A stretch of 11,607 nucleotides of DNA from a virus (taxonomy: Duplodnaviria > Heunggongvirae > Uroviricota > Caudoviricetes): the IMG/VR virus record IMGVR_UViG_2850808358_000010; one strand, given 5' to 3'. Below are positions 8,901-11,607 of the stretch, one piece after another; position 1 is the stretch's first letter, and the number at the start of each line of letters is the position of its first letter. Made by a program: the position numbers.

Positions 8901-11607
8901 GGAACCCGGCGGCTCCAGACGGAGCTGGCAGAGAATGGCATCATCGTTGGTCGTGACCGACTGGCACGTCTTCGTAAGGAGCTAAGGCTACGCTGTAAGC
9001 AGAAACGCAAGTTCAGAGCGACTACGAACCCGAACCACAATCTGCCAGTTGCGCCAAATCTGCTGAACCAGACGTTCGCTCCTACAGCACCAAATCAGGT
9101 CTGGGTGGCGGACCTGACGTATGTTGCCACACAGGAGGGATGGTTGTACCTCGCTGGCATCAAAGATGTTTATACGTGCGAAATTGTCGGCTACGCCATG
9201 GGAGAGCGCATGACAAAAGAGCTGACAGGTAAAGCCCTGTTTATGGCTCTCAGGAGCCAGCGCCCACCTGCCGGGCTAATCCACCACTCTGATCGAGGTT
9301 CACAGTACTGCGCATACGATTACCGGGTCATACAGGAGCAGTTTGGTCTGAAAACATCAATGTCGCGTAAAGGTAACTGTTACGACAACGCTCCGATGGA
9401 AAGCTTCTGGGGAACGCTGAAAAATGAGAGCCTGAGCCACTATCGTTTTAATAACCGGGATGAAGCCATCTCAGTAATACGGGAATACATTGAGATTTTC
9501 TACAATCGTCAGCGTCGTCACTCTCGTCTGGGGAATATCTCCCCGGCAGCCTTCAGGGAAAAATATCATCAGATGGCTGCTTAAAAAAAGAACAAATGGT
9601 AGTGTCCGCTATTGCCAGTACACCTCAAAGGGGTTCATGTATTAAAAGTCGACGGAGTTAAAGAACGTTGGGTCGACTTAATGGAGATTTCAAAATGGGC
9701 AAGAAAGAACAAGGATCATTACCTCTCCCAAGAGGAGTAACTATTCGTCAATACAAGAATTGCTCTACATTAGTTGTAACCTTCACATATAAAGGGGTTC
9801 TTTGCAGAGAACCCTTACCAAGGCTGGAAGCTAACGCAAAGGGGATTAAGTATGCAGAGCGACTTCTCGGAGAAATAAAAAACCAAATCTGTGATGATTC
9901 ATTCGATTTTTCAAAATACTTTCCAAACTCCAGGAAGTTAGCATTATTTGGAATGGTAAAGAAGAATAAAAGTGTGAGAGATTACCTAGATGAATATCTG
10001 GAAATTTGCAAAAACAGAAAGTTATCACCTTCAACAATAAATGGATATGAAAAATGCGTATCTGCATTATCGGAACTACATAAGCTACATGTCGTTGACC
10101 TGACACCAGCAATATTAAAAAAATGGATTTCAAGAAGAACAACAAAACTTAAGACCATAAGAAACAATCTGTCATTTTTAAGAAGCGCAGTAGATGAAGC
10201 GGTCACTGACGGACTTATAACGATAAATCCTGTAAAACTGGTTAGTGCAAGTAGATACCATGCGGTTAACCATACAGCCAATGCTGATGATTATGAAGTG
10301 GATCCCTTCACGCCAGCAGAGGCAACAGCTATCTACAACGCCTGTCTCTATCAGGAATGGAGAAATCTTTTTTGTTTCGCATTCAATACAGGCCTTCGAA
10401 GCTCAGAATTATGTGCATTGCGTTGGTCTGATATTGATTTTATTGGGCATACCGTTCACGTACAGGTCGCTTCTGTCGTTGGTGTAATAAAAGGAACCAA
10501 AACAAAAGCAGGGACCAGAAAAGTTGAATTAAACAATGAAGCCATAATGGCATTGCAGTCCCAGAAATCATTTACGATGATGAGAAGTGATTTTGTATTC
10601 AGTGATCCAAAAACACGCAAGCCGTGGGCTAATTCAGCTGCGATTCGCAAGAAAGCCTGGATTCCGACGCTTAAAAAAGCCGGAGTTCGTTACCGCAATC
10701 CATATCAGACCAGGCATACATTCGCTACACAGCATATCAGCCAGGGGGCAAATTTATTCTGGCTTGCCGGTCAAATGGGACACAAAGGACCAGAAATGCT
10801 GTTTAGACACTATGGTTCATATTTATCAGAATATGATGGCAAGACTGCAATCTCAAAAGTCATCTAGCCACTTAAATATTTCAAAATATGTACTAAGGTA
10901 GGACACAGAATAGACACCGACTTACACCTGAAATACATAAAAATATACAGAAACGATATGAAATCTTTTGTTTTTCATATCGTTATGTAATTTTGGTGTT
11001 TGGGTTCAACTCCCGCCAGCTCCACCAATCATGATTGGACGGTGTAAGGACAACACCAATAAAAACAGGAAGTTAGAATTCTCAGCAGGACACCGACCAG
11101 ACGGTGAGGAGACATAAAAGGATACGCAAAGGAGCCGCGGCTCCTGGTGACATGAAAGCCCACAGATGTGGGCTTTTTCGTTGATGGTCAGAACGACCAG
11201 TTCACACCAGCTACCCCGTTCCACGGGGATTCCACACCGGCACCATGGCTATACCCCACCCCAAGATGCCCGCTTAACGTACTGCTGAATGAGGCTTTAA
11301 TACCTGCCTGGTATATTCCACGTCTGCCCGACAAATCATTGACGAAATTACCGTCACTATTCACTTTCACCCGGTTATCATCGACAAATTCTTTGCGCAC
11401 AGCCGCCTTCAGCCACGGCTCAACTTCCATACCGTTCCCCAGACGCATGTTGTAACTCAGCGTTGCACCCAGTTCACGATATAAACTGCGGGTATCGACT
11501 GATTTCGATTCCATGCCATTGGATAAATGATATTCAGGGTTATCAGCGGTGAACCCCGTTAACGATGCATACGGCGTCAGGTTCCAGTTACCATCGGTAA
11601 ATCGCAT

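Follow-up and report, generated by a model that had tools for sequence, protein, structure and literature searches.

A prophage-chromosome junction at ssrA: the post-ssrA cassette, a predicted terminator and a conserved palindrome beside the ypjA/ehaD end

Overview

The window, a stretch of 11,607 nt recorded as a Caudoviricetes virus (IMG/VR record IMGVR_UViG_2850808358_000010), very probably ends in the ordinary chromosomal right flank of a prophage, made up of an attR at ssrA, a post-ssrA cassette with the ssrA terminator, and the end of ypjA, with a palindrome in the cassette that we take as an inherited element of the attachment arm. The gene end, the palindrome and the hairpin thus described appear to be ordinary, already-catalogued E. 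coli chromosomal DNA. The features that define this end of the window are as follows (positions are those of the window).

9668-10867, plus strand: prophage tyrosine integrase (PF00589 and the arm-DNA-binding domain PF12167)
10868-11001, plus strand: prophage P arm, with GTAC, GGAC and AGAC repeats at 10890, 10901 and 10912
11002-11027, plus strand: last 26 nt of ssrA (tmRNA), GGGTTCAACTCCCGCCAGCTCCACCA, predicted attR core from sequence match and junction position
11028-11178, plus strand: ssrA 3'-flank cassette, putative B' arm of the attachment site, conserved after ssrA and with homologues in phage attP
11188-11607, minus strand: end of the ypjA/ehaD gene for a type Va autotransporter adhesin, with 139 codons of the beta-barrel translocator and the stop

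The junction between prophage and chromosome at ssrA

When the window was compared with E. coli genomes by megablast, identity to 2794 genomes was found to begin exactly at 11002, where the ssrA copy starts. This 26-nt copy is complete, while the K-12 fragment psaA lacks one T. In the insertion-free strains W2-5 and ECCHD184, an intact ssrA directly adjoins the same spacer and ypjA. The final 606 bases of the window are accordingly assigned, by sequence comparison, to E. coli-type chromosome on the right of the prophage end, and 11002-11027 is the displaced 3' end of ssrA, taken as the attR core that belongs to a lambdoid prophage now decayed; the attR membership rests on this right junction, the opposite prophage end lying outside the window. 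Since the ssrA flank and the opposite-strand ypjA end were both identified, ssrA and ypjA can be regarded as convergent neighbours with one common spacer. The excisionase gene of the prophage is truncated, which locks the prophage in. As the 26-nt core is intact, excision would be expected to restore a normal ssrA.

The attR of CP4-57 in K-12 shows the same order as the window, namely the element end, the ssrA 3' fragment (psaA), the spacer and ypjA. The element in the window differs from CP4-57 in being what remains of a lambdoid prophage and in having another integrase, and its ssrA core measures 26 nt against the 14 nt annotated for psaA in K-12. It has been described that the K-12 copy lacks T357, so that CP4-57 excision inactivates tmRNA (PMC10107115), and ssrA has been recognised as a hotspot of integration (PMC3603311).

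The first-pass annotation of this DNA had regarded the terminal gene with its palindrome and hairpin as context of low novelty that could anchor the locus. The low novelty agrees with the known E. coli flank identified here, and the context is indeed useful, but the true anchor, the ssrA 3' end at 11002-11027, had been overlooked. With the exact junction and the insertion site fixed as prophage, ssrA attR and ypjA, the prophage itself can be better anchored and judged.

The terminal gene is assigned to ypjA/ehaD

The minus-strand frame at 11188-11607 encodes 139 aa without an internal stop, terminates with ...GVAGVNWSF and a TGA stop codon (11188-11190), and stays open up to the window edge. 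The minus-strand gene with a beta-barrel end and NWSF terminus proposed from the sequence was borne out, the fragment being 96% identical to residues 1388-1526 of K-12 YpjA with the last 8 residues identical. The homology and profile searches suggested at that time matched the autotransporter beta-domain, both with Pfam PF03797 (E=7.8e-20, profile positions 127-254 of 255) and with TIGR01414 (E=3e-30, model positions 299-432 of 432, the C-terminal end). The translocators of BrkA and Vag8, for which structures have been solved, also match the fragment, and the RefSeq annotation of the matching E. coli loci agrees on a ypjA/ehaD end. An ATG falls at the window edge by coincidence, being the codon for the residue equivalent to Met1388 of K-12 YpjA.

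K-12 ypjA (b2647) and EHEC ehaD, of the AIDA-I/Ag43 type (type Va), share with the window this 96% identity, the NWSF terminus, the orientation and the 160-nt spacer to the ssrA fragment. From the sequence together with the conserved ssrA-spacer-ypjA layout, the fragment is assigned as a ypjA/ehaD ortholog, an assignment made from the last 139 codons with the signal peptide and passenger domain outside the window. Members of the ypjA/ehaD family have been described as promoting biofilm formation (PMC9289746, PMC12547504). An extra C after position 11553 shifts the frame and makes ypjA a pseudogene in the closest relatives by DNA (W2-5 type, 99.2%), and this insertion is absent from the window. 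When genome contigs were searched for the protein fragment, all the loci found were from E. coli and Shigella, mostly of the paralogue ycgH, and this search provided no cross-genus view of ypjA.

A 151-nt cassette shared by the chromosome and phages

In UPEC 536, with glaH downstream, and in AB56, with a restriction-modification pair downstream, the 151-nt stretch follows an intact ssrA in a locus without ypjA, and the homology includes the hairpin and the T-run and ends past the T-run. The comparison thus shows that the cassette travels with ssrA and not with ypjA: in loci lacking ypjA it persists as far as the T-run. Homologues were also found in the phages LLS, phiNP, Ayreon, PhiR12 and LMessi and in IMG/VR contigs, and those of the phages are located in the attP region, right after the phage's own ssrA fragment. 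A total of 55 unique homologues were obtained, several of them so closely related that sequence counts overstate independent events, and nearly all are 146-159 nt long with a terminal hairpin and T-run.

A phage attP may carry the 3' end of its target gene, which replaces the displaced gene end, as in P22, HP1 and phage 21/e14. Phages LLS, phiNP, PhiR12 and LMessi resemble these in having the ssrA end followed by homologous flank, and differ in that the sequence in common extends for some 150 nt beyond the gene end, through the terminator, and holds phased RGAC repeats. The sharing suggests that such phages must supply a working gene end together with a terminator; a cassette of some 150 nt common to chromosome and phages is of modest interest for tmRNA expression and for integration at tRNA-like genes, and can readily serve as a marker of attachment sites at ssrA. 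No description of the extended post-ssrA cassette was found in the literature searched, which did not cover Williams 2002/2003 on integration at the tmRNA gene. Within the cassette, the following elements were distinguished.

11037, 11048, 11088, 11099 and 11110 (span 11037-11113), plus strand: RGAC repeats phased at 11-nt spacing, all on one strand
11041-11057, plus strand: inverted repeat GGTGT/ACACC with a conserved AAGGACA loop
11063-11075, plus strand: putative IHF-consensus-like site AAACAGGAAGTTA, one mismatch to the consensus
11091-11106, plus strand: inverted repeat CACCG/CGGTG with an invariant ACCAGA loop
11120-11140: near-invariant block GGATACGCAAAGGAGCCGCGG, 21 nt
11130-11145: perfect 16-bp palindrome AGGAGCCGCGGCTCCT at the right end of that block
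11155-11178, plus strand: predicted intrinsic terminator hairpin, GCCCAC (11158-11163) and GTGGGC (11168-11173) around the loop AGAT, followed by T5 (11174-11178)

Three 11-nt-spaced pairs of RGAC, as present here, were reached in 0 of 5000 shuffles, and 45-53 of the 55 homologues retain the offsets. Phased repeats of the same kind occur in P arms, that of this prophage and others. Combined with the IHF-like site, this layout resembles a candidate array of integrase arm sites.

The palindrome lies in a conserved block

A perfect 14-bp palindrome, GGAGCCGCGGCTCC, had been noted at 11131-11144; it is present as stated and extends by one pair to the perfect 16-mer. By itself the palindrome is not beyond chance, since 18% of the sequences obtained by dinucleotide shuffling of the window hold a perfect palindrome of at least 16 bp and those of 14 bp or longer number 0.73 per shuffle on average, yet it is a conserved element. 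The 32 nt from 11116 to 11147 are identical in 2784 complete E. coli genomes, and the palindrome is found in the phage homologues as well. The left half of the palindrome is constant in these comparisons, and variation falls in the right half. Over 40 diverged cassettes, little or no change is seen in the left half or in the 11 nt before it; the right half has been lost in two homologues (T38 and T39), and most homologues leave the outermost pair (11130/11145) open. One lineage carries a compensated variant, GGAGTCGCGACTCC, produced by a double change, and copies of the GATACGCAAA..GAGCCGCG block were detected in three unrelated P arms. Uncompensated right-half changes at 11142 and 11144 were seen in chromosomal E. 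coli copies, a pattern consistent with no function in that position.

Based on these features, we read the palindrome as a probable inherited recognition element of att-arm DNA and not as a ypjA-specific signal. It forms the end of the 21-nt block, with a right half that may be dispensable. That it is functionless here, a chance or decaying sequence in a conserved neighbourhood, seems rather unlikely: such a sequence would suit the shuffle frequency, the uncompensated changes and the open outer pair, but not a left half and preceding 11 nt kept nearly invariant in 40 diverged cassettes, nor the compensated double change and the block-like copies in three unrelated P arms. A REP or other dispersed palindromic repeat was considered and rejected, the segment occurring at a median of one place per E. 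coli genome.

In a strand test of the palindrome, 10 changes were G.U-only against 1 that was A.C-only, which is suggestive for the plus strand. These G.U-only changes and the compensated double change would also suit an RNA hairpin on the plus strand.

Structure of the cassette as RNA or as DNA

The possibility was considered that the 151-nt spacer is a functional RNA, either a 3' trailer of the tmRNA precursor that guides processing or stability or a released regulatory RNA, and that phages carry copies since tmRNA would not mature without it. The cassette holds four inverted repeats with conserved loops and covarying stems. Overall, 95.2% of cells are paired, and double changes are seen at 6 pairs, compared with at most 2 in slid controls. 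In the 11041-11057 repeat, two pairs have changed in both of their bases and three standard pair types are found at the closing pair, and type B homologues present CTCTG/CAGAG or CACTG/CAGTG around the same ACCAGA loop of the second repeat. The spacer also folds better as an ensemble than its shuffles (z -2.5), G.U-only changes exceed A.C-only changes in both the palindrome and the terminator, and the length is held within about 151-159 nt over divergent cassette types that all end in a terminator. All of these are compatible with an RNA trailer, but the tmRNA of K-12 is functional with a 79-nt trailer that comes from CP4-57 and is unrelated, which indicates that this trailer is not required. 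Moreover, the first hairpin gives no plus-strand signal, with A.C departures outnumbering G.U (9 vs 4), the unpaired flanking block GGATACGCAAA varies less than the stems do, and the one-strand RGAC motifs with 11-nt phasing, kept across cassette types, are typical of protein sites on DNA. The spacer had no Rfam match at gathering thresholds, and at permissive thresholds only a 9-bit tmRNA 3' fragment and chance-level minus-strand matches to isrB and rsmX appeared. A functional RNA is therefore considered unlikely.

Its variant as a CsrA/Rsm sponge fails: the window copy contains six AGGA motifs, but it is RGAC and not GGA that type B cassettes keep. The two ORFs in the spacer (28 aa on the plus strand and 23 aa on the minus strand) were likewise set aside, having no ribosome-binding site at a usable distance and length-changing variants in the homologues.

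A combined reading, in which the cassette is a mobile selected module exchanged between hosts and phages, at once the att-arm of a group of ssrA-integrating phages, with the palindrome block as one recognition element, and a structured trailer at the 3' end of the tmRNA precursor, is a speculative one that we think improbable. If true, one exchanged cassette must serve both tmRNA expression and site-specific recombination.

A predicted ssrA terminator between ssrA and ypjA

The arms of the terminal hairpin, AAAGCCCACA (11155-11164) and TGTGGGCTTT (11167-11176), fold with -15.4 kcal/mol on the plus strand (z -4.45) and -14.5 kcal/mol on the minus strand (z -4.68), and on either strand 0 of 200 shuffles were as stable. 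The plus-strand tail TTTTTCGTT scores -4.12, and the minus-strand tail TTTCATGT scores -2.80, which is marginal at the lenient cut-off of -2.5. The earlier claim of a hairpin usable as a terminator from both strands (given as 11157-11179) therefore holds in part: the hairpin is real, at 11155-11176 with T5 at 11174-11178, and strong in the ssrA sense, but only marginal in the ypjA sense. A standard terminator scan missed it, probably because that scan extends the stem into the A/T runs, and flagged two weak minus-strand sites; a custom scan recovered it.

The hairpin is identical in 2809 of the 2886 E. coli genomes carrying it. Among the homologues the T-run is always on the plus (ssrA) strand. 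The stem varies by a compensatory A-U/G-C pair and, in other cassette types, by non-homologous stem replacements, and the strand test of the stem gave a clear plus-strand signal, with 12 G.U pairs on the plus strand against 0 A.C pairs. K-12 CP4-57 carries a different terminator directly after ssrA. Two data sets of mapped E. coli 3' ends held no entry for ypjA, psaA, ypjF or the corresponding K-12 coordinates. Taken as a prediction, the hairpin is primarily an ssrA-sense terminator and a weaker terminator toward ypjA.

In the mechanism we propose, ssrA transcription would be terminated intrinsically by the hairpin and T5. A phage inserting in ssrA would have to bring its own copy of the terminator for tmRNA still to be made, and the original cassette copy would be left stranded at attR, as in the window, where it may stop rightward read-through from the integrase region. 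Because ssrA is not adjacent in the window, the role as ssrA terminator would be historical, or conditional and regained after excision, and not current. In reverse, with a tail of only UUUCAUGU, the hairpin may form a less efficient end of the ypjA mRNA, and the palindrome on the ypjA-sense RNA could add a second, weak hairpin (-9.8 kcal/mol, tail UUUGCG).

Known bidirectional terminators between convergent genes are similar in having a GC-rich hairpin between an A-run and a T-run. The hairpin in the window, known here from sequence, differs in its asymmetry, with T5 on the ssrA side and only T3 on the ypjA side.

The T-run ends at 11178, 9 nt from the ypjA stop codon, and in the ypjA sense the hairpin starts 11 nt past the stop. 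The first-pass annotation placed the palindrome and the hairpin in the 3' region of the autotransporter gene; the position stands, but the assignment does not, as the cassette is kept without ypjA and in phages. It is very improbable that both belong to a ypjA 3' untranslated region, the hairpin having evolved as the ypjA terminator and the palindrome as an extra ypjA signal: a primary role of this kind is largely refuted by the persistence of both elements after ssrA without ypjA and in phages, by a T-run always on the ssrA strand and by G.U tolerated on the plus strand only, in spite of the short distance to the stop, an equally good minus-strand fold, a minus tail that passes the lenient cut-off, and a palindrome hairpin followed by TTTGCG (tail score -2.74) that would make two tandem hairpins on the minus strand. 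The paralogue ycgH has a hairpin equally far from its stop as in ypjA, but homology within the ypjA/ycgH family begins only at 11178, and the ycgH hairpin is a different one with a proper minus-strand T-run.

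The integration site and the autotransporter gene end

In 2794 of 5426 complete E. coli genomes, identity of the chromosome to the window begins exactly at position 11002, where the end of the tmRNA gene ssrA was recognized by sequence comparison; a weak Rfam match to the tmRNA 3′ end stops at 11027. The features of this region are as follows.

Features at the right end of the window
9668-10867, tyrosine integrase gene with arm-binding domain, left of 11002
11002-11027, 3′ end of ssrA, 26 bases, GGGTTCAACTCCCGCCAGCTCCACCA
11037, 11048, 11088, 11099 and 11110, RGAC motifs, all on one strand
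11063-11075, IHF-like candidate site, differing from the IHF consensus by one mismatch
11130-11145, perfect 16-mer palindrome, AGGAGCCGCGGCTCCT
11155-11164 and 11167-11176, hairpin arms, with a plus-strand T-run at 11174-11178
11188-11607, minus strand, 3′ end of ypjA/ehaD, 139 open codons ending in GVAGVNWSF, with a TGA stop at 11188-11190

The sequence left of 11002 is a lambdoid prophage, and the closest relatives of its integrase (95%) are integrases of prophages likewise ending at an ssrA fragment. Based on the start of identity, the ssrA end and the integrase, 11002-11027 was assigned as the attR core and 11028-11607 as chromosome. Strains W2-5 and ECCHD184 have an intact ssrA that continues directly into the same spacer, with ypjA convergent on the opposite strand; K-12 has the same layout behind its CP4-57 element, the ssrA fragment there carrying the annotation psaA. 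The K-12 psaA (L003, 5973-5986) lacks one T, the reason why CP4-57 excision inactivates tmRNA (PMC10107115), whereas the fragment in the window is a perfect 26-nt copy, so that excision of the prophage here would be expected to restore a normal ssrA. This fragment, overlooked in the first-pass annotation, is the true anchor of the locus.

The minus-strand gene at the window edge had been called an autotransporter, and the homology search of its 139-aa fragment, set beforehand as the check on this call, bore it out. Autotransporter beta-domain profiles matched (Pfam PF03797, E=7.8e-20; TIGR01414, E=3e-30, the alignment covering the last 134 positions of the model), as did the solved BrkA and Vag8 translocators, and the fragment is 96% identical to residues 1388-1526 of K-12 YpjA (full length 1526). 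The ATG at the window edge corresponds simply to Met1388 of YpjA. RefSeq names the matching gene “adhesin-like autotransporter YpjA/EhaD”, a protein placed among the biofilm-forming adhesins of the AIDA-I/Ag43 type (PMC9289746, PMC12547504). The closest DNA relatives (99.2%, e.g., strain W2-5) carry an additional C after the equivalent of 11553, which splits their ypjA into a pseudogene; the window, which holds only the 3′-terminal 139 codons, is without this extra C.

The DNA of the ypjA 3′ end (11178-11532) also shares 96% identity with the ycgH pseudogene remnant (L006, 4001-4355), which adjoins minE in many E. coli. Such identity, far above expectation for old paralogues, suggests gene conversion or a recent duplication.

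The spacer belongs to ssrA

The palindrome and the hairpin had been described as lying in the 3′ region of the autotransporter gene. Both are real, as is the gene fragment, when frame, palindrome and fold are re-checked, but both belong to the ssrA flank. In UPEC 536 and AB56, the spacer, palindrome, hairpin and T-run directly follow an intact ssrA and ypjA is absent; homology to the window ends just past the T-run, and the gene downstream is glaH in UPEC 536 and a restriction-modification pair in AB56 (one strain each). Homology between ypjA and its paralogue ycgH starts only at 11178, within the T-run, and the hairpin of ycgH is another one (CTGCGC/GCGCAG), with a proper T-run on the minus strand. 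Moreover, the free phages LLS, phiNP, Ayreon, PhiR12 and LMessi have the same stretch following their own ssrA fragment; the LLS copy, annotated as “tmRNA pseudogene” and attP, shows 88% identity over 177 nt. Because of the ypjA-less strains, the limit of ycgH homology and the phage copies, the 151 nt at 11028-11178 were assigned to ssrA, not to ypjA. A pattern scan of viral contigs contributed many further homologues of this cassette, and of the 55 unique ones collected, nearly all measure 146-159 nt and finish with a hairpin and T-run on the ssrA strand.

The finding is an ordinary one. The gene end and the integration site are already known, the terminator is a predicted one, and all three are either annotated or implied in each E. 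coli K-12 record. The cassette shared by host and phages is a modest side result, for which no description was found in the literature searched; the key papers on tmRNA-gene integration lay outside that search.

In AB56 (L027, 2413-3855), the restriction-modification pair, a type II restriction endonuclease and a cytosine methyltransferase, stands right after the cassette terminator, the place of ypjA elsewhere, and its cassette variant is present in five loci, viral contigs included. Some other islands end inside or beside the 160-nt spacer (O157 NE92, E600003).

The hairpin is a predicted ssrA terminator

The hairpin folds at -15.4 kcal/mol as plus-strand RNA and -14.5 kcal/mol as minus-strand RNA, and none of 200 shuffles was equally stable on either strand. 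The built-in terminator scan overlooked it, probably because that scan extends the stem into the flanking A and T runs, and a replacement scan that trims A/T-run pairs detected it on both strands. In the trimming scan, the tail score was -4.12 on the plus strand (TTTTTCGTT) versus -2.80 on the minus strand (TTTCATGT), so the earlier statement that the hairpin is usable from both strands stands for the plus strand and only weakly for the minus strand.

The T-run lies on the plus strand throughout the cassette family. In an alignment of 40 diverged cassettes, one stem pair is compensatory (A-U in 9, G-C in 29). Departures from Watson-Crick pairing, read on the plus strand, comprise 12 G.U and no A.C. 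Other cassette types carry unrelated replacement stems (CCAACC/GGTTGG, CCCCAGA/TCTGGGG, CCAGCC/GGCTGG). The hairpin shows no change among 13 aligned strains, which vary at ~10% of sites in the remaining spacer, and its 34-nt segment is identical in 2809 of the 2886 E. coli genomes carrying it. These data point to a predicted ssrA terminator.

An element inserting into ssrA would have to supply a replacement gene end and terminator, leaving the original stranded at attR. The strand-specific T-run, the stem replacements and the different terminator of K-12 CP4-57 (GCCCGCA...TGCGGGC followed by T6, 79 nt past ssrA) all fit this idea. In the present genome, the hairpin could halt rightward read-through from the integrase region and, in reverse and less efficiently, end the ypjA mRNA. 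Two E. coli 3′-end data sets contained no entry for the hairpin site, as expected, since the K-12 site is fed by no ssrA promoter and ypjA is poorly expressed.

The palindrome and the layout of the cassette

The palindrome, first reported as 14 bp (11131-11144), extends to a perfect 16-mer. A perfect palindrome of at least 16 bp occurs in 18% of shuffled windows, so the palindrome alone is within chance. In the 40 aligned cassettes, the block GGATACGCAAAGGAGCCGCGG, which holds its left half, is invariant or nearly so. The right half is variable: 11144 changes from C to T in nine sequences, giving G.U on the plus strand, further changes occur at 11141-11142, and the half is lost in two sequences (T38 and T39). 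The outermost pair is unpaired in most homologues, and chromosomal E. coli copies carry uncompensated changes; the UPEC 536-type lineage has a compensated double change, GGAGTCGCGACTCC. For the palindrome itself, the left-block sequence is conserved more than the pairing. Across the four inverted repeats jointly, 95.2% of cells are paired, and six pairs have changed on both sides (shuffled mean 3.5, six reached in 3 of 500 shuffles; at most two in slid controls), so dyad symmetry in the cassette is real.

A second perfect palindrome, CCAATCATGATTGG (14 bp, 11025-11038), spans the CCA end of the ssrA fragment. Perfect palindromes of at least 14 bp number four in the window against 0.73 expected, two of them within the 160-nt spacer.

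Three of the RGAC spacings are 11 nt, which none of 5000 shuffles matched, and 45-53 of the 55 homologues carry the motif at the same offsets. The prophage P arm has GTAC, GGAC and AGAC at 10890, 10901 and 10912, also at 11-nt spacing, and has the 9-mer GACACCGAC in common with the cassette; the P arms of related phages have three phased GGAC repeats. Type B cassettes carry the motif ATGCACGT at the position of the palindrome block, and it is present in both arms of related phages. Copies of the GATACGCAAA..GAGCCGCG block occur in three unrelated P arms. Judged from sequence, the arrangement is that of DNA arm sites for an integrase together with sites for accessory proteins. From the phased repeats and shared blocks, we therefore tentatively prefer, at somewhat less than an even chance, to read the cassette as an att arm or a descendant of one, with the palindrome block as one putative recognition element.

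The palindrome may instead act as an RNA hairpin, a role that we regard as doubtful. It would then work in the trailer of the tmRNA precursor or, with UUUGCG behind it and a tail score of -2.74, as an additional weak terminator of ypjA-sense transcripts. Less probable again is that the palindrome is without function in its present position. A CsrA sponge, prompted by six AGGA motifs, was rejected as type B cassettes keep RGAC and not GGA, dispersed palindromic repeats were ruled out by the single copy per genome, and Rfam gave no family match for the cassette.

In the stretch separating the integrase stop codon from the att core, the P arm also contains a perfect 12-nt inverted repeat with a 9-nt loop (AACGATATGAAA / TTTCATATCGTT, 10952-10984), which may serve as terminator of the integrase gene or as a site for a protein.

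Other features of the prophage

An IS3-family element (8428-9740 region; orfA 8428-8730, orfB 8766-9584) fills the interval between the helicase and integrase genes and replaces the 5′ part of the excisionase gene. Homology to a related prophage starts at 9628, what is left of the gene encodes just the C-terminal half of Xis, and the prophage is probably unable to excise. An IS4-family transposase gene (5202-6314) is situated inside the prophage, with the regulatory RNA region on one side and the DnaB-type helicase gene (6743-8134, minus strand) on the other; the prophage looks like a remnant.

On the minus strand at 3860-4275, Rfam matches over the gathering score were obtained for sRNA-Xcc1, C4 antisense RNA, isrK and the c4 a1b1 target, adjoining an ORF6N-domain gene (3259-4020); together these look like an antisense-controlled antirepressor module of the P1/P7 type. 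Four tRNA genes (Met-CAT, Arg-TCT, Thr-TGT and Gly-TCC; 2797-3107, minus strand) lie upstream of the lysis genes, including a lysozyme gene at 1342-1905. Among phages, the window is matched best by phiP27-like and Stx-converting ones, but no stx ORF was found in it.
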